From positions 4,128,001 to 4,192,000 of the forward strand of contig OZ240248.1 of NCBI GenBank assembly GCA_965198235.1: a DNA stretch of 64,000 nucleotides. The letters run 5' to 3'. Below are positions 2,060 to 45,750 of this stretch, piece by piece. This DNA comes from Candidatus Poribacteria bacterium (GTDB lineage Bacteria > Poribacteria > WGA-4E > WGA-3G). Each line of letters begins with the position of its first letter. Position 1 is the stretch's first letter. The position numbers and the translations under genes are program-made. The notes under the pieces are model-generated. The model made no database searches. It was given only the letters and a program-made list of their open reading frames with translations, and was not told the origin of the DNA.

Positions 2060-2755
2060 TTGATGGACGCAAAGATTCTAATTGTTGAAGATGAACGTGA
2101 TATTGTAGATTTACTGCGATACAATCTACAAGAAGCAGGTTTTGAAACAGATTATGTCCGAAACGGCGCAGATGCCCTTCATCGGGCTGTCGAAAAGCCG
2201 CCGGATCTCATTTTGTTAGACCTGATGCTCCCAGAGGTCGATGGACTCATCGTCTGTCGTTTACTAAAGAACGATCCAAGGACTAAAAACATTCCGATCG
2301 TGATGGTAACCGCGAAGGTCGAAGAACGGGACCGGGTGGCAGGGTTGGAACTCGGGGCGGACGATTACATCACAAAACCCTTTAGTCCAAGAGAAGTTGT
2401 ACTCCGGGTATCCGCTGTGCTACGCCGTATCCAAGCCGGTAAACAAACAGAGAGTACCAAACAGATCGAAACACACGGGTTAACAATCGATCTGGACAAA
2501 CATCAAGTCCTGACTGAAAACGGTTCAATCGATCTCACAGCAACCGAATTCAAGCTCATCACGTTATTCGCACGTTCGCCAGGACGCGTCTTTACCCGCG
2601 ATATTCTAATGGACGTGATATGGGGGCAGGAGTATTACGGCATCGATAGGACAGTGGACACGCATGTCAGCCGCCTTCGCCGTAAGCTCGGGGAATTCGG
2701 TAAGCATATTGAGACAGTACATGGGGTTGGGTATCGGTTCAAGGAAGTTAGTTGA
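2060..2755 (+). CDS. OmpR/PhoB-family response regulator (no adjacent kinase)
   Basis: Receiver motifs VEDE, LLDLMLP and YITKPF; winged-helix motifs RTVDTHVSRLRRKL and TVHGVGY. Confidence 0.95.
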   Translation: MMDAKILIVEDERDIVDLLRYNLQEAGFETDYVRNGADALHRAVEKPPDLILLDLMLPEVDGLIVCRLLKNDPRTKNIPIVMVTAKVEERDRVAGLELGADDYITKPFSPREVVLRVSAVLRRIQAGKQTESTKQIETHGLTIDLDKHQVLTENGSIDLTATEFKLITLFARSPGRVFTRDILMDVIWGQEYYGIDRTVDTHVSRLRRKLGEFGKHIETVHGVGYRFKEVS

Positions 2756-2787
2756 GGACCGCTATACCAGAGGCATTCAATCCTCTT

Positions 2788-2860
2788 GTAGGAGGGATCT
2801 CCGAATCCCGACTCTTAACTGACCGCTGATGGCTGACTGCTGATGGAAACCGACCGCTGA
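2788..2860. repeat. GTAG-type REP hairpin followed by degenerate 7-bp tandem repeats
   Basis: GTAGGAGGGATCTCCGAATCCCGAC then (G/A)CTGA(C/T)N heptamers, between convergent genes. Confidence 0.6.
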
Positions 2861-2950
2861 TGAAGTGCTTTCAAGCGAGAGGTACCCTTTAAGGTTCCTC
2901 CCGCATTGAAGTGCACGTGTAGGGTTGATATATAGATTCGGCTCTTGCAC

Positions 2951-3325
2951 CTACGGAAACTGTATCCCCAGTTTTCGGCACACCTTTCGGATTTTGTTAA
3001 CCGCACCGCCTATCTGTTTTCCGTTCCGCGTAACACCAAAAAGATGCTGACTTACAACACGGCGGGAAATACCGAGAATGTCCCCAATCTCCTCTTGTGT
3101 TTTACCTTTATAGAAGTAGAGTTGAATACATTCGGCTTGGCGTTTGGTTAGTTCGTTCGCGATAATCCGACGAATCTGTTTGAGAACTACCCGTCGCTTG
3201 GCGCGACGCATCTCTGTCCATTCGTCATCAGGTGCTCGATACCAAAAATAGTCCTCGGTAGTAAGCTGATCGAAATACTCCGGCGGCACCGGAATCTCCC
3301 AAAAGTCGGGATTAAACTTGGGCAT
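2951..3325 (-). CDS. sigma-70 region 4-like HTH protein (no region 2)
   Basis: LTKRQAECIQLYFYKGKTQEEIGDILGISRRVVSQHL. Confidence 0.8.
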   Translation of the reverse strand: MPKFNPDFWEIPVPPEYFDQLTTEDYFWYRAPDDEWTEMRRAKRRVVLKQIRRIIANELTKRQAECIQLYFYKGKTQEEIGDILGISRRVVSQHLFGVTRNGKQIGGAVNKIRKVCRKLGIQFP

Positions 3326-3378
3326 AGATAAAGCAACTCCCTCGAATGCGAGGCGATCGCGCCTATGCCTTAATCAAA

Positions 3379-3456
3379 CTATCGACAAAGGTCAGAGGCA
3401 CCATCGCCACAATTGAATACTTTCAGGTGAAGTGTGACGTGGTTCATTGACAACAT
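3379..3456 (-). CDS. 25-aa small ORF / putative leader peptide MLSMNHVTLHLKVFNCGDGASDLCR
   Basis: Tandem strong SD AAGGAGGATAAGGAGGT upstream of the ATG; stop lies 53 nt before the HTH gene. Confidence 0.5.
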   Translation of the reverse strand: MLSMNHVTLHLKVFNCGDGASDLCR

Positions 3457-3662
3457 AATGGTTACCTCCTTATCCTCCTTATTGTTTATAATTGGGAACG
3501 GTGCAAGCGGGTCAATGACATTTTGTAAAGACTGCCTTTTGCAAACCGCACATGATCGTTATCAAATAATATACCAAAAAATAGAAAAATATGCCATAAA
3601 AATCCGGTTCAGTCCGCGACGCGTAGCGAAGCCTCCCTTCTATCCCGAAAACAGCATACCTT

Positions 3663-3830
3663 CAAAATAGGGGACAGAGGGGTTTGAACCCCCCGTCCCT
3701 TTCCAAAGAGTGCGACACTCAGTGCCACACCCGCAAGGGCGCAACACTAAGTGTCACACCTCCTCTGGTTTGCTAACATAACAAATACCTCCTTTTCCGC
3801 AATACAGCGGTATTAGGATACCATCGTCAA
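3663..3830 (-). ncRNA. candidate structured small transcript with a 10-aa uORF (3747-3779), 23-bp hairpin and terminator-like hairpin
   Basis: SD AAGGAGGT + ATG; 23-bp stem at 3710-3759 fully paired only on the minus strand (6 G-U pairs); GC-rich stem at 3671-3699 followed by UAUUUU; 5' end is approximate. Confidence 0.55.
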
Positions 3831-3904
3831 AAAATGACAATGATTCACTTAAACACATTTTCGGATGCACTTTTGCATGTTTTTGTGAAAAAAATCAAAA
3901 AAAT

Positions 3905-3937
3905 AGAGGACAGAGAAGTATTAATTCTCTGTCCTCT
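3905..3937 (-). terminator. intrinsic terminator of the infA-rsgA-GNAT operon
   Basis: 13-bp perfect stem AGAGGACAGAGAA/TTCTCTGTCCTCT followed by a long U tract on the minus strand. Confidence 0.85.
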
Positions 3938-3997
3938 TCTAAAGGGCATGATGAACAGCGCAACACGCCTATAGACATCCAGTCTTTGCGAGAAAAA

Positions 3998-4828
3998 TCA
4001 TTCTTCGGGATCAAAAAACACTTTGAGCGGGGTACTGAGCCGTGGCGTTTCAGCCTGTTCATCTATTGACTTCTCGCCGCTCCACTCGCTGCGCTCAATG
4101 CCCATCGTGTAAGCCTGTTCTGTGGTGTCAGTGTAACTGAGGTATTGGAACCCGGCATTCTCAAAACAGATGAGTGCAGGTCCGTTGTCAGGTGATACTT
4201 GTAGTGTGATGTGCTCAGCCTGCAGTTGTTCAAACGCGTAACGTACTGCTTCAAGGAGTGCATCCGTGCCGTATCCGCGAGCGCGATAATCAGGTCGAAT
4301 GATGACGAATTTGAGGGTAACAGTGTCTGCATTATAGTGAAGGAGGACAAATCCGATGAGAAGGCGCGTCGTTCGGATATCAATAGCGAGCGCGTGCATC
4401 TGTTCACTTTCCATCCAACGGTGCCAATCTTCGAGAAACGTTTCAAACGACACCTGTGTCGCGTAGAAGAGATGCCTGATACCCGGTCGGTTTATCCATC
4501 CCCAAATTCGGCGAAGCTCATTTTCAGCGATCTGTCGGAGGTGAATGCCGCCACCGTGAAGCCGTTCCAACTGACGCAACTGACTTCTCAAGCCTTCCAA
4601 TTGTGCCGAGTGCGCGCCGACTTGAGCCCCCGCGGCTCGAACCATACGCTGATTCGGGCGATCCATGAATTGTGCTTGCTTTACGCGGTTCTGGAAATAT
4701 CCAAGTTTCTGCTCACTCCTTTCAATAATACGCATCAAGTTCTGAATGGCATCTTCCCATTTTTGTGGGTCAACGTTTACGTCGCCGCGTGTTTCGGTCC
4801 GTTCTTCTCTTATCTGTGTTTCGTTCAT
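3998..4828 (-). CDS. RimJ/RimL-type GNAT N-acetyltransferase with an N-terminal coiled coil
   Basis: PDYRARGYGTDAL, YAFEQL, DNGPALICFENAGF; start placed at ATG 4828 after GGGAG. Confidence 0.8.
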   Translation of the reverse strand: MNETQIREERTETRGDVNVDPQKWEDAIQNLMRIIERSEQKLGYFQNRVKQAQFMDRPNQRMVRAAGAQVGAHSAQLEGLRSQLRQLERLHGGGIHLRQIAENELRRIWGWINRPGIRHLFYATQVSFETFLEDWHRWMESEQMHALAIDIRTTRLLIGFVLLHYNADTVTLKFVIIRPDYRARGYGTDALLEAVRYAFEQLQAEHITLQVSPDNGPALICFENAGFQYLSYTDTTEQAYTMGIERSEWSGEKSIDEQAETPRLSTPLKVFFDPEE

Positions 4829-5840
4829 ATCTCCCTTCCCTGAATCCAGAGATCCGGAGGTAACTTTCATATCGGATCGGACTAATATCCCCAGTTTCAA
4901 CCGCTTGCTTGACAGCACACGCTGGTTCGTGCTGGTGCGTACATGCGGCGAATTTGCACTCCGGAATATAAGACCGCATCTCCGGAAAATGAATATCTAA
5001 TCCCTGTTCTTCATCAACTTCAAGCAAGCCGAGGGTTCGGATACCGGGCGTGTCGGCGACGAACCCACCGAATTCGAGTGGCAATAGCATAACTTCTGTC
5101 GTCGTATGCCGCCCTTTGTGGACACGTGTATCCACCTCACCCGTGCGTAATTGGAGTCCCGGTTGCACCGCATTGAGCAGAGACGATTTTCCAACCCCCG
5201 ATGAACCTACAATTGCAGAAATCCTATCCTGCATCACCTCCCGCAATTCTTCAACACCAACACCCGTCACGATACTTGTATAAACCACTTTATAACCTAA
5301 TTCTTCATATAAACTGAGTTCACGTTGTATATTCTCGAATTTCGCCAAATCAAGTTTGTTAATACAGATAACCGGCTCAACATCAGATGCTTCCGCTGTG
5401 ACGAGAAATCTATCAAGCATCCGCAACTTGAGTGTCGGATGCCGTGCCGCAAAGATAATGAGTAGCATATCTAAGTTAGCAACAATAACCTGTCGCCAAC
5501 CGTCCATGCGAATACGGCCAAACTGGGTGTCACGGGGAAGACATGCCTCGATGTATCCACTCTCCGCTGTGGACATAGCAGTAGAAATGCGTACCCGGTC
5601 GCCAACCGCGACGAGATCGACGTACGGCATCTCTTTTGTCTCAGCGAGCCGCCGTTTTTCATCTTCAATGAGGTGGTGCCGCAAAGCACAAGTGTAGCTT
5701 CGCTTGCCAACTTGTACCTCGTAGGCACCACTTCGCGCGTTTATTACAATACCTTCCATAGTCTGATCCAGAGATGGCATCAAAGAATTCCTCATACAAC
5801 AGCACCTAAGAGCCAGGATTCCGCCAGACAATGCGTCCAC
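4770..5840 (-). CDS. rsgA: ribosome small subunit-dependent GTPase A
   Basis: Circularly permuted G motifs [19 protein letters not shown] and DTPG; Zn finger [14 protein letters not shown]; exact start uncertain. Confidence 0.95.
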
Positions 5841-6069
5841 GCGTCAGGTCATAAGGAGAAAGTTCCACGGTAACCTGATCGCCAGGAAGCACCCAAATTT
5901 TGTGCCGCATTAGTTTACCAGCGAGGTATGCCACAACTTTGTAGTCGTTCTCTTCTAATTTCACCTGAAATAGGTTCCCCGGTAGGGATTCGAGTACAGT
6001 TCCGAGGACGCGGATCGCCACGTCTTTAGAGACTTCACGAGTCTTGGTTGTCACGGTTGCATTTTTCAT
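5806..6069 (-). CDS. infA: translation initiation factor IF-1 (divergent)
   Basis: GTVLESLP...[20 protein letters not shown]. Confidence 0.93.
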
Positions 6070-6156
6070 TTTCTATTTTCTCCTTTTTGTGATGACTATT
6101 TGTTACCTTTAACATTATATTGGATGCACTTTGTTAACGAATTGTTCGGAAAAAAG

Positions 6157-6185
6157 TTGACATCAAGCCTGAAAAGTTGTAAAAT
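6157..6185 (+). promoter_or_regulatory. sigma70-type promoter
   Basis: TTGACA-17 nt-TAAAAT. Confidence 0.75.
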
Positions 6186-6236
6186 ACACAAGTGGGAGAT
6201 TCCATTTCAAGTTTTTTATAAAAGGAGAAGAAAATA

Positions 6237-7040
6237 ATGAGCCAAGCCTTACCCCTTGTAGCCTATCCTGACCTCGAAGGCCAAGTCAAGGCAATGGAGG
6301 AAGACGGATATGCCTATCTACCGAAGGTTATCGAAGGCGAACAACTTGCGGAACTTCGTGACGCGATGGATCGGTTAACCGCAATTTCTGAGAGTTTTGA
6401 TCGGCACGGCACGCCAGAGAATGGAAACGGTTTCCTTAACAAACATATTAATAACGCCTTCAACCGCGACCCCGTCTTCTTACGATACCTTGATCGGTCT
6501 CCAGTTATCGAATTGGCAGAGGCAGTGCACGGCGAAGATTGTCACGTCATCGGGATGACGGCATGGGTAACGGGACCCGGGCGCCCCGACCAAGGGTTGC
6601 ACATAGATTGGCTGCCGATCCCACTGCCAGTGGACATTCTGGAAGATCCGCGCGTCAAGGTGCCAATTTTCATCTCAACCGCACACTACTACTTGGATGA
6701 CCTCTACGAAGACCTCGGTCCAACAAAGTTCGTGCCGGGCAGCCATCTTTCCGGACAGAGACCCGATGGTGAAACAGAATGGAAAGGCGCGTCAGGAAAG
6801 AGTATCCTCTGCAACGCTGGCGATGTCGTGATTTTCCGAAGCGAAGTCTGGCATCGAGGCACAGCAAATCGTAGCGACCAAACCCGGTACCTCTTACAAG
6901 TGCACTACGCGAATCGGATGATCACTCAGAAATTCCCACCCTATCTGAACCGGTTTCAGTTTAATGCGGAAATCTTGGAGCAGGCAACGGAACGTCAACA
7001 GCGATTAATGGGCAATCACCGCCCCGGTGCCTACGATTGA
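6237..7040 (+). CDS. phytanoyl-CoA dioxygenase (PhyH) family Fe(II)/2OG enzyme
   Basis: HxD motif (LHID), GPTKFVPGSH, WHRG. Confidence 0.88.
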   Translation: MSQALPLVAYPDLEGQVKAMEEDGYAYLPKVIEGEQLAELRDAMDRLTAISESFDRHGTPENGNGFLNKHINNAFNRDPVFLRYLDRSPVIELAEAVHGEDCHVIGMTAWVTGPGRPDQGLHIDWLPIPLPVDILEDPRVKVPIFISTAHYYLDDLYEDLGPTKFVPGSHLSGQRPDGETEWKGASGKSILCNAGDVVIFRSEVWHRGTANRSDQTRYLLQVHYANRMITQKFPPYLNRFQFNAEILEQATERQQRLMGNHRPGAYD

Positions 7041-28652: not shown

Positions 28653-29024
28653 ATGCCGACAATTAATCAGTTAATCAAAAAACCGCGCAAAAGGTCCCGG
28701 AAAAAAACAAAATCTCCGGTACTGGAGCAGTGTCCCCAGCGGCGCGGTATCTGTCTACAAGTGAAAACAGTAACGCCGAACAAACCGAATTCCGCACTGC
28801 GTAAAGTCGCTCGGGTGAGGTTCACCTCTGGCTACGAAGCTACTTGTTACATTCCGGGGATCGATCACAATTTGCAAGAACACTCAGTCGTTTTAGTCCG
28901 GGGCGGGAAAGTGAAAGACCTCTCTAATGTGCGTTACCACATCGTCCGCGGCAAATTGGATACAGCAGGTGTCGATAACCGTCGCCAAGGTCGTTCAAAG
29001 TACGGCGCACGGAAACCGGGTTAA
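28653..29024 (+). CDS. rpsL: 30S protein S12 (atypical loops)
   Basis: [24 protein letters not shown]. Confidence 0.98.
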
Positions 29025-43049: not shown

Positions 43050-43562
43050 ATGCTGAAAGATAAAATCAACCCTGATGAATATGAATTTGAGGAACGCATG
43101 ATTACCATCAATCGCGTGATGCGAGTTGGTAAGGGGCGACGAACCCCCAGTTTTAACTCACTCACCGTTGTTGGAAATCGTGATGGTATTGTTGGTATCG
43201 GATTTGGTAGCGCAAGCGAAGTCGCTGGCGCGCTCCGAAAAAGTTTCGCAGATGCTCGAAAAAATCTTATTCGGGTTCCAATCACCAACGGTACGCTCCC
43301 ACATGAAATCATCAGCGAATTCAAATCTGCCAAAGTCTTGCTAAAACCGGCAAGCCCCGGGACAGGTATTATCGCAGGACATGCGACGCGTGCTATCCTT
43401 GAATTCGCAGGCGTTCGAGATGCCCTAACAAAATGCCTTTCCTCTCGAAATGTGAAAAATATCGCTGAAGCTACCATGCTTGGATTGAAGAACCTCAAAG
43501 ATATTAATGAAGTCGCTCGGTTACGAGACATACCTGTCGAAGAACTGCTCAAGAGACGCTAA
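43050..43562 (+). CDS. rpsE: 30S protein S5 (divergent)
   Basis: INRV, TVVGN, GTLPH, LKPASPGTGIIAG; spc operon position. Confidence 0.96.
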   Translation: MLKDKINPDEYEFEERMITINRVMRVGKGRRTPSFNSLTVVGNRDGIVGIGFGSASEVAGALRKSFADARKNLIRVPITNGTLPHEIISEFKSAKVLLKPASPGTGIIAGHATRAILEFAGVRDALTKCLSSRNVKNIAEATMLGLKNLKDINEVARLRDIPVEELLKRR

Positions 43563-44276: not shown

Positions 44277-45608
44277 GTGATTAAGGCAGTTCAAAACGCT
44301 TTTAAAATACCCGAATTGCGGAAACGCATCATTTTTACAGCGTTGCTCTTGATTGTTTACCGCCTCGGTGCCCACATCACACTTCCGGGTATTGACGACC
44401 AAGCACTCGAAGCTTTTTTTCAGCAACTCATGGAGCGTGGTGGGAATGTCATTGGATTCATTGACCTGTTTTCTGGTGGCGCATTTAGTCAGATGACTAT
44501 TTTCGCACTCGGCATACAACCGTATATCAGTGCCTCAATCATTATGCAGCTCCTCGCCGTCATTGTGCCTTCATTGGAGAAACTCTCCAAAGAACCTGAC
44601 GGTCGGAAGAAAATTACACAGTATACCCGATACGGAACGGTTGTACTCAGTATCATTCAGGGTATAACGATTAGCATCGTCCTGCGGAACCCGGAAAACA
44701 TAACCGGACAAGCAGACGAAATCGTGAGAAACCCTGACCTCTGGTGGCATTTCCTTGTAGTGATAACACTCACTGCCGGAACCTCCTTTGTTATGTGGTT
44801 GGGTGAACAGATCACAGAGCGCGGTATTGGACAAGGTATTTCATTAATTATTACAGTCGGCATTATTGCTGGATTGCCTGGCGGTGTCACAACCGTTTTC
44901 AACAACCTCGTGACAAGACCGGAGTTCGGAATCCTACAACTCGCACTTTTAGTCGCGCTTGTCGTTGTAGCCGTTATGGGGACTGTGTTTATCACACTTT
45001 CTGTTCGGAGGATTCCGGTGCAATACGGCAGGCAGATTCGCGGACGAAGAGTGATTGGCGGGCAATCAACACATCTGCCGCTCCGCGTTAACGCAGCCGG
45101 CATGATTCCAATCATCTTCGCTGTGACACTGATCCAGTTCCCACCGACTGTCCTCGGTTTTCTACCACGGGACTGGGGATGGGTAACTGGTGTAGAAACA
45201 CTCATTGCTCCGGGGACACCGTTGTACCTCACCGTTTACGCGTTATTAATTATTGGTTTCACCTATTTCTACACAGCTGTGCAAATCAATCCAATACAAA
45301 TGGCAGAGGACTTACAGAAATACGGCGGTTTTATTCCCGGTATACGAGCAGGTAAACAGACCGCGGATTACATCAACACTACGCTTACACGCATCACACT
45401 CCCAGGCGCAGTTTTTCTCGCTGCTATTGCTGTGATTCCGATCATTATCACAAGCCAGCTTCAAGTTGGAAACATGGTGGAAGGTGCTTCTATTTTGATC
45501 GTTGTAGGTGTCGTGTTAGATACAGTGTCACAAATCGAATCCTATCTAACGGTCCGCCATTACGAAGGATTCTTAAAAGATCGAAAACTCAGAGGCAGAC
45601 GGCGTTAA
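44277..45608 (+). CDS. secY: preprotein translocase SecY
   Basis: [32 protein letters not shown]. Confidence 0.98.
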
Positions 45609-45633: not shown

Positions 45634-45750
45634 ATGAAAGTCAGACCTTCTGTTAAAAAGATGTGTAACCAGTGTAAAATTATTAAACGAAAAGGGATAG
45701 TCCGCGTCATTTGTTCTTCAAACCCGAAGCACAAACAACGCCAAGGCTAA
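45634..45750 (+). CDS. rpmJ: 50S protein L36 (Zn-binding type)
   Basis: Manual translation [38 protein letters not shown]. Confidence 0.98.

Follow-up and report, generated by a model that had tools for sequence, protein, structure and literature searches.

A conserved gene pair of an RsgA paralogue and a GNAT acetyltransferase in Candidatus Poribacteria, a candidate accessory module of the 30S subunit

Passages of PMC9032327 describe the late 30S assembly GTPase RsgA (YjeQ) as clamping helix 44 (h44) at the decoding centre with its OB and GTPase domains, and RimJ as a GNAT acetyltransferase acting on pre-30S particles; excerpts of PMC2440530 and PMC9032327 add that the S5(G28D) defect of E. 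coli is suppressed by high-copy rimJ. Here we describe a locus in the genome of a Candidatus Poribacteria bacterium, a sponge symbiont, from a 64,000-nt stretch of DNA (the window, within which all coordinates are given). Three minus-strand genes followed by a terminator lie there between 6069 and 3905, namely infA2, for a paralogue of initiation factor 1 (IF1), rsgA2, for a paralogue of RsgA, and a gene for a GNAT acetyltransferase. Judged from comparison of sequences, the conserved functional unit appears to be rsgA2 together with the GNAT gene, a translationally coupled two-gene cassette, and we propose, with a probability of about 0.4, that the pair forms an accessory module, RsgA2 serving to direct its dedicated acetyltransferase partner to the 30S subunit.

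The paralogue rsgA2 (4770..5759, minus strand) encodes a protein of 329 aa. Its start, the ATG at 5759 opening the sequence MEGIV, was kept in all relatives compared; the frame 5' of it was not conserved and carried stops in many relatives. The original prediction, made from the window alone, had read three overlapping genes. Three same-strand genes are indeed present but, as the longer rsgA2 open reading frame (ORF) is not conserved and contains stops in relatives, infA2 and rsgA2 do not overlap and are 46 nt apart (spacer 5760..5805, minus strand, from the conserved MEGIV start), the length of this spacer ranging from ~20 to 260 nt across relatives. The only overlap is that between rsgA2, which ends at 4770, and the GNAT gene, whose ATG at 4828 lies 59 nt inside rsgA2, so that the minus-strand segment 4770..4828 codes both for the tail of RsgA2 and, in the +1 frame, for the N-terminus of the GNAT. 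A Shine-Dalgarno sequence of the GGGAG type, GGGAAGGGAG (4840..4831, minus strand), lies inside rsgA2, and both the ATG and this Shine-Dalgarno were kept in 24/24 loci of the genus. The start at 4828 agrees with 276-aa gene calls in public data, and a second family (genus g6) has the overlap too, with TTG as start codon at the same place. Because the 59-nt overlap with its internal Shine-Dalgarno is conserved across two families, translation of the two genes is likely to be coupled. A programmed +1 frameshift fusing RsgA2 to the GNAT was also considered and rejected, since 5' of its ATG the GNAT frame was not conserved as protein whereas the RsgA frame was.

The linkage of the two genes was strict. 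Of 61 genomes of the order, 24 had both the GNAT and an RsgA2 orthologue (at least 69% identity) and 37 had neither, and rsgA2 stood immediately upstream of the GNAT gene in 44/45 loci tested (26/26 and 6/6 loci in two samples, 9/10 from further genera including another order, and 3/3 distant contigs). The single exception was a second, divergent GNAT copy in one genome, with an rsgA-like gene starting ~1 kb downstream. In the three distant metagenome contigs the GNAT was 32-39% identical to that of the window, and an RsgA2-like gene (57-61% identical) again lay directly upstream. The genes around the pair differed, being a PhyH gene, infA2 and a sigma-region-4 gene in family f1, an acyltransferase gene and a terminator in genus g6, and other genes in contig L185. 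Genomes of genus g9 without the pair retained an intact PhyH-infA2 flank, which indicates that the pair was lost or gained as a unit. Full-length GNAT was present in 104/176 genomes of the phylum, in families f1 and f3 and in one genome from another order of the same class. The GNAT family is rare, with only 9 representatives at E <= 1e-30 among 1.84 billion proteins, and of 80 genome loci encoding it 78 were titled Poribacteria and 2 'uncultured bacterium'. The full infA-rsgA-GNAT order, for which a neighbourhood check had been suggested, was conserved in 23/24 loci of the genus (the 24th was at a contig end) and in further genera of the family. In a search for RsgA-GNAT fusions, or for other long proteins with the N-terminal extension of the GNAT, none of 137 candidates scored, which is weak evidence. 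No paper on an RsgA-paralogue/acetyltransferase pair, or on Poribacteria and RsgA, turned up in full-text searches of one literature library. As a separate observation, contig L185 carries the rsgA2-GNAT-sigma-region-4 cluster followed by a further RsgA-like gene (L185:4973-5893), whose 306-aa product is 38% identical to RsgA2.

RsgA2 matched the RsgA model TIGR00157 with 243.7 bits (cut-off 100), and is one of three rsgA genes of this genome that pass that cut-off. The OB domain, circularly permuted GTPase and zinc finger of the family are all present. The GTPase motifs N134-K-x-D137, G188-V-G-K-S-S and D236-T-P-G were invariant in both RsgA alignments, as were the zinc-finger residues C268, C273, H275 and C281. 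At its C-terminus RsgA2 also has a Lys/Arg-rich tail of ~22 residues, which neither of the other two paralogues possesses; this tail is mostly Arg in the genus, and its Lys positions were not conserved between families. A housekeeping RsgA, 43-52% identical to RsgA2, was found in 61/61 genomes of the order. With two infA and three rsgA genes in the genome, the infA and rsgA of the window are extra paralogues and not the housekeeping copies of the cell. The ribosome-linked role suggested by the original prediction is reasonable, as RsgA clamps h44 at the decoding centre according to passages of PMC9032327, and from its conserved architecture RsgA2 would be expected to bind, like RsgA, at the top of h44 on the 30S subunit. 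The third RsgA paralogue (L005:1483-2703, in the same genome, C1:1988462 region) is a protein of 406 aa with an N-terminal extension of ~110 residues, was seen in only 4/61 genomes (G000, G045, G072 and G078), and has a nucleoside-phosphorylase-like ORF and a GNAT-like ORF downstream.

The GNAT consists of an N-terminal extension of approximately residues 1-95 (4544..4828, minus strand) and an acetyltransferase domain of the Acetyltransf_3 type with a C-terminal tail bearing a conserved APLK motif (3998..4543, minus strand). The domain matched PF13302 with 50.1 bits (cut-off 25.4) and PF00583 with 44.2 bits. The pyrophosphate of acetyl-CoA is bound in GNAT enzymes by a loop with the motif R/Q-x-x-G-x-G/A, and here the loop R182-x-x-G185-Y-G187 was invariant in one alignment of the GNAT (R182-A-R-G185-Y-G187 in the window copy), G185-Y-G187 being invariant across the wider family alignment as well. 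An AlphaFold (AF2) model, of moderate confidence (mean pLDDT 60.7), predicted helices at 21-53 and 60-91 followed by the GNAT fold, with pLDDT 62-78 by block over the resulting helical hairpin. The most conserved block of the extension, YFQNRVKQAxFxDxPNQR, lies at the tip of the hairpin, running from the last part of helix 1 through the turn into helix 2. Pfam gave no match in the extension and a search of the ESM Atlas with the N-terminal 110 residues gave no usable match, and the ~95-residue N-terminal hairpin, as modelled, appears to be unique to this GNAT family.

The original prediction had called the GNAT RimJ-like, a description that did not survive comparison, although the JGI product name of some GNAT relatives is 'RimJ/RimL family'. 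None of the NCBIfam models matched the GNAT above its cut-off; the best were RimI (34.7 bits) and PseH (32.7 bits, cut-off 93.1), RimJ and RimL were not listed, and the SpeG model NF011709 gave 16.6 bits, below its cut-off of 218. The RimJ model NF008072, which matched in 10/14 control genomes, found nothing anywhere in this genome at E <= 0.01. When two profiles of the GNAT family were scored against E. coli proteins, SpeG reached 30.7 and 44.1 bits and RimI 20.8 and 21.4, with RimL at -1.1 and 6.7 and RimJ at -0.8 and 1.1, and on the E. coli K-12 chromosome the best match of the GNAT profile was speG (28.6 bits), followed by rimI and yhhY. SpeG was likewise the best sequence match among solved structures (E = 1.8e-8), ahead of AAC(6') and PseH, and in Foldseek SpeG structures took ranks 1-6 and made up 24 of the 30 matches listed. 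The closest stand-alone GNATs matched PseH, SpeG and AAC(6') models. Compared with RimJ, RimL and SpeG, the protein was thus nearest to SpeG, a small-molecule acetyltransferase, an outcome that the original prediction had named as counting against it, though the similarity was weak throughout (identity to SpeG ~20%), and such weak similarities appear to place the domain within GNAT space while saying nothing on its substrate. A GNAT toxin paired with an RHH antitoxin (TacT/AtaT type), or another known defence system, was considered and discarded, as the partner is a 329-aa RsgA and not an RHH protein, and PADLOC had no family for the GNAT or for IF1 and gave only weak P-loop matches for RsgA2. 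The list of PDB profile matches for the GNAT held no toxin-named molecule.

The first gene, infA2 (5806..6069, minus strand), encodes a divergent IF1 paralogue of 87 aa that matched TIGR00008 with 89.6 bits (cut-off 61.15) over profile positions 1-68 of 69 and PF01176 with 81.7 bits, and that aligned full-length to solved IF1 structures. The genome holds a second infA, 265 kb away, which is the more canonical of the two (126.3 bits versus 89.2 for the window copy) and to whose product infA2 is 54% identical; infA2 is thus the divergent copy and not the single canonical initiation factor of the organism. In place of the usual AHISGKMR...IRILPGD, it has a signature beginning AYLAGK(L/M), with a one-residue insertion. 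The Arg of GKMR and the Arg of IRIL, both of which we take to be rRNA contacts, are replaced by Met and Trp. This altered core was near-invariant across ~35 orthologues. A second infA copy was found in 21/21 sampled genomes of family f1 and only sporadically elsewhere. It occurred alone, without rsgA2-GNAT, in 6/6 pair-lacking genomes examined, adjoined the PhyH gene whether or not the pair followed, and was absent beside the pair in family f3 and in the distant metagenome contigs. As it persists without the pair and is missing beside the pair in f3, infA2 is not an obligatory partner; these patterns suggest a separately maintained IF1 variant that is a neighbour of the pair. The absence of infA from its usual place between secY (44277..45608) and rpmJ (45634..45750), to which the original prediction had drawn attention, was confirmed but is not telling, because in E. 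coli K-12 secY is likewise directly followed by rpmJ. The canonical IF1 of the same genome (L001:1354-1713, C1:4398801 region) lies in an ORF of 119 aa whose N-terminal extension, ~45 residues long, is very basic, and stop-to-stop frames around canonical infA measured 125-227 aa in 61/61 genomes of the order, which suggests an extended IF1 in Poribacteria.

Two ribosomal proteins of the window had been put forward as companions of the operon, and both do carry the variants claimed for them. In S5 (43050..43562) an Arg (R30) aligned without gaps to Gly28 of E. coli, and S12 (28653..29024) has TPNKPNSA and KDLSNV versus TPKKPNSA and KDLPGV in solved S12 sequences. Their distribution was compared in 33 genomes, including 13 of family f1 (7 with and 6 without the pair), 5 of family f3 with the pair and 14 others in which S5 was seen. 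S5 KGRR together with S12 TP(N/S)K occurred in 13/13 f1 genomes, including 6/6 without the GNAT, while the canonical S5 KGGR was found in 5/5 pair-bearing f3 genomes and in 14 other genomes. Since the variants are shared by f1 genomes lacking the pair and, for S5, absent from f3 genomes bearing it, they are not linked to the GNAT, and the expected correlation with the presence of the operon was not borne out. They track family f1, and with it infA2, a link that is inseparable from shared descent because f1 is one clade. In f1 ribosomes, S12 has Asn or Ser in place of the first Lys of TPKKPNSA and Ser in place of the Pro of KDLPGV, and S5 has Arg at Gly28; the variant S12 positions are presumably classical streptomycin-resistance sites and the S12 and S5 positions together those of streptomycin and ram mutations. 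In family f2, S12 has the Ser as in f1 together with NPKK, and some f3 genomes have TPTK.

The operon ends, as originally predicted, at a strong intrinsic terminator (3905..3937, minus strand) with a 13-bp stem and T-run (free energy -21.3 kcal/mol, z = -6.1; 0/200 shuffles folded as well). At its other end, 5' of infA2, the sequence TTGAAA, 18 nt, TATTTT (6181..6210, minus strand) is promoter-like, a weak consensus match at 9/12 positions. In one sponge metatranscriptome run a single contig spanned 3934..5868, from the edge of the terminator through the GNAT gene and rsgA2 into the last 62 nt of infA2; further RNA-library contigs covered 5839..6102, those over infA2 ending at 6102, and three more runs of the same study, all of them labelled sponge metagenome, covered parts of the stretch. 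At most, these contigs are compatible with a transcript of infA2, rsgA2 and the GNAT gene running to the terminator (predicted ends ~6100 and 3905), and infA2 is probably co-transcribed with the rsgA2-GNAT pair.

Beyond the terminator lies a non-coding stretch of 570 nt (3326..3898, minus strand), 73-91% identical within the genus, that separates the operon from a sigma-region-4 gene. It contains an upstream ORF of 10-11 codons, MLANQRRC(D/G)T, preceded by a perfect AAGGAGG; 9/9 aligned species preserve the reading frame of this ORF and its stop despite indels. A terminator-like hairpin after this ORF (3699..3671) was conserved with one compensatory pair change, this hairpin being the part of the consensus fold of the region that was evaluated. 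With these features, the stretch resembles a ribosome-dependent attenuator placed before the regulator gene. Word depth was higher in the RNA-library contigs over 3300..3630 and 3651..3884 than in those over the operon, and an Rfam search of 2700..6400 returned a sole, sub-threshold match (31.8 bits versus 60). The sigma-region-4 gene itself (2951..3325, minus strand) encodes 124 aa, little beyond sigma-70 region 4 (PF04545, 48.4 bits). It was present in 21/21 genomes of f1 and in none of 16 of genus g6, where the pair is present, but also in 10/10 of genus g5 and 4/4 of g3, where the pair is absent, and it was found again downstream of the pair in the distant contig L185. As this distribution does not follow the pair, the gene was rejected as a component of the module. 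Divergent from infA2 lies a gene for a 2-oxoglutarate dioxygenase of the PhyH family (6237..7040, plus strand), which is syntenic throughout f1. The family is expanded in the order (11 to 186 first-look candidates per genome, several of them close paralogues), and this gene was also rejected as a component because its orthologues and paralogues are spread over the whole order.

For the pair as a ribosome-targeted acetylation module, the following mechanism can be envisaged. Binding of RsgA2 to the 30S subunit at the top of h44 would bring or license its partner acetyltransferase there, the GNAT would dock via its hairpin and use acetyl-CoA to acetylate an amine that is part of the small subunit or located at it, and GTP hydrolysis would release the factor. 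As target, we slightly prefer an amine on a protein, whether of the 30S subunit or of one of its assembly intermediates, to a small molecule bound to the ribosome. The patchy distribution points to an accessory, condition-specific function and not to core ribosome biogenesis. A predicted complex of RsgA2 and the GNAT scored 0.00 in two runs, a value that, the controls not having been folded, speaks neither for nor against binding. In its most elaborate form, the proposal would make RsgA2 a GTP-dependent delivery factor that places a SpeG-like GNAT, by its hairpin tip, at the 30S decoding centre and that, together with the variant IF1 and ribosomes carrying S12 K42N/S and S5 G28R, constitutes a lineage-specific system remodelling or protecting the decoding site under translation stress in sponge symbionts; this version is speculative and we consider it rather unlikely.

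Several points weigh against targeting to the 30S subunit. Contact between RsgA2 and the GNAT, or of either with a ribosome, is putative. The module was not found in 37/61 genomes of the order, including 15/18 sampled g9 genomes, and is for that reason dispensable, and the joint loss of two neighbours can follow from single deletions with no need of a functional link. Before GF, the GNAT has an invariant Phe within Cys-Phe-Glu, at a position that we take to be that of the usual catalytic Tyr. A protein substrate is not favoured by homology, since the nearest characterised relatives (SpeG, AAC(6') and PseH) act on small molecules. From the RNA-library contigs, all of one study, neither the unity of a transcript nor its strand or ends can be established.

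The last but one of these points leads to an alternative that we regard as a real, though minority, possibility, namely that the pair belongs to a translation-stress or antibiotic-tolerance module in which the GNAT acetylates a polyamine or an aminoglycoside-like natural product of the sponge, with RsgA2, and in f1 the variant IF1, serving as alternative decoding-site factors under the same stress, so that the enzyme need not act on the ribosome. The position of SpeG as nearest neighbour in the K-12 search, the direct scores and Foldseek, and the matches of the closest stand-alone GNATs to PseH, SpeG and AAC(6') models, would suit such an enzyme, although these similarities are far under the curated cut-offs (16.6 versus 218 bits for SpeG and 32.7 versus 93.1 for PseH). 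A patchy accessory distribution suits a stress function too. There is also a precedent, by analogy, in Streptomyces coelicolor, where the WblC/WhiB7 regulon, concerned with translation-targeting antibiotics, is described in passages of PMC7157823 as holding 16 GNATs as well as an RsgA paralogue (SCO6149 beside SCO5211). While the short upstream ORF and terminator downstream of the operon, ahead of a regulator gene, would fit as well, the sigma-region-4 gene does not accompany the pair from genome to genome, and acetylation of a free small molecule leaves both the strictly linked RsgA paralogue and the unique hairpin unexplained. The two genes might, on the other hand, be co-transcribed neighbours without a shared function, a general metabolic GNAT having come by chance to follow a duplicated rsgA. 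Genes for GNATs abound and are frequently part of unrelated operons (this genome has 5 Acetyltransf_3 matches), and, as mentioned above, single deletions remove adjacent genes together. We nevertheless hold this to be unlikely, as the adjacency persists down to 32-39% GNAT identity, in at least two orders and in unplaced metagenome lineages with differing flanks, neither orthologue was found without the other in 61 genomes, and the overlap is conserved.

Strict linkage and coupled translation could also reflect a regulatory pair, in which the GNAT acetylates RsgA2, for instance on its basic tail, or the IF1 paralogue, and thereby switches ribosome binding on or off. The RsgA2-specific tail is encoded exactly at the start of the GNAT gene; its predominance of Arg in the genus and the lack of conserved Lys positions between families, together with the absence of infA2 beside the pair in f3 and the distant contigs, make such a switch quite improbable. 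Least probable of all, to the point of being very doubtful, is the explanation first offered for the operon, a co-adapted 30S maturation and initiation module with a quality-control role, in which a RimJ-like enzyme acetylates or chaperones S5 and so offsets S5 Gly28Arg and the atypical S12. The residues are as stated (Arg at the Gly28 position of S5, Asn in TPKKPNSA and Ser in KDLPGV of S12), the gene order is conserved within the family, and the suppression of E. coli S5(G28D) by high-copy rimJ, reported in the abstract of PMC2440530 and in passages of PMC9032327, gave the idea its rationale. However, the S5/S12 variants follow the family, with KGRR and TPNK in 6/6 family genomes without the GNAT and KGGR in 5/5 f3 genomes with it, infA2 is not tied to the pair, and the GNAT is not RimJ-like, the RimJ model being silent in the genome and the RimJ profile scores being -0.8 and 1.1 bits. 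The window S5, as encoded, begins Met-Leu-Lys and not with Ala, while the E. coli RimJ gene product is named S5-alanine acetyltransferase, for an N-terminal Ala.

To our knowledge, RsgA is regarded as a checkpoint of 30S maturation present in a single copy, and the ribosome acetyltransferases of bacteria as enzymes that work on their own. If the pair does act at the 30S subunit, a duplicated assembly GTPase can take on a new role as an adaptor for chemistry directed at the ribosome, and the module would open a way to study specialised or stress-adapted ribosomes in a symbiont phylum that is uncultivated; were RsgA2 a delivery factor in the fuller sense described above, it would be the first known instance in which a paralogue of an assembly GTPase serves as targeting subunit for a modifying enzyme. 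Independently of this, an annotation trap is corrected, as the infA and rsgA beside the ribosomal-protein cluster here are not housekeeping genes.

Set against the described systems, RsgA2 shares with RsgA/YjeQ, the late 30S assembly GTPase, the three-domain architecture and the invariant GTPase and zinc-finger residues, but it is an extra paralogue with a basic tail and with a dedicated GNAT gene next to it. Similarly, infA2 has the IF1 fold and scores above the cut-off of the IF1 family (infA, TIGR00008), but is a second copy with an insertion and an altered conserved signature. With RimJ, the S5 N-acetyltransferase associated with pre-30S particles in E. coli, the GNAT of the window has in common its fold, the Acetyltransf_3 match and the putative link to the small subunit, while specific similarity is lacking and the window protein has the additional N-terminal hairpin of ~95 residues. 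SpeG, the spermidine N-acetyltransferase, is the best match in sequence and fold, yet at ~20% identity and 16.6 bits versus a cut-off of 218, and it has neither an N-terminal hairpin nor an RsgA partner. A further parallel in composition is the WblC/WhiB7 regulon, in which an RsgA paralogue and many GNATs are deployed with alternative translation factors under translation-targeting antibiotics; the Streptomyces genes are united by shared regulation, no linked pair being reported in the passages cited, so that the likeness is one of analogy only, whereas in these Poribacteria the two genes appear to be joined in a single coupled cassette.

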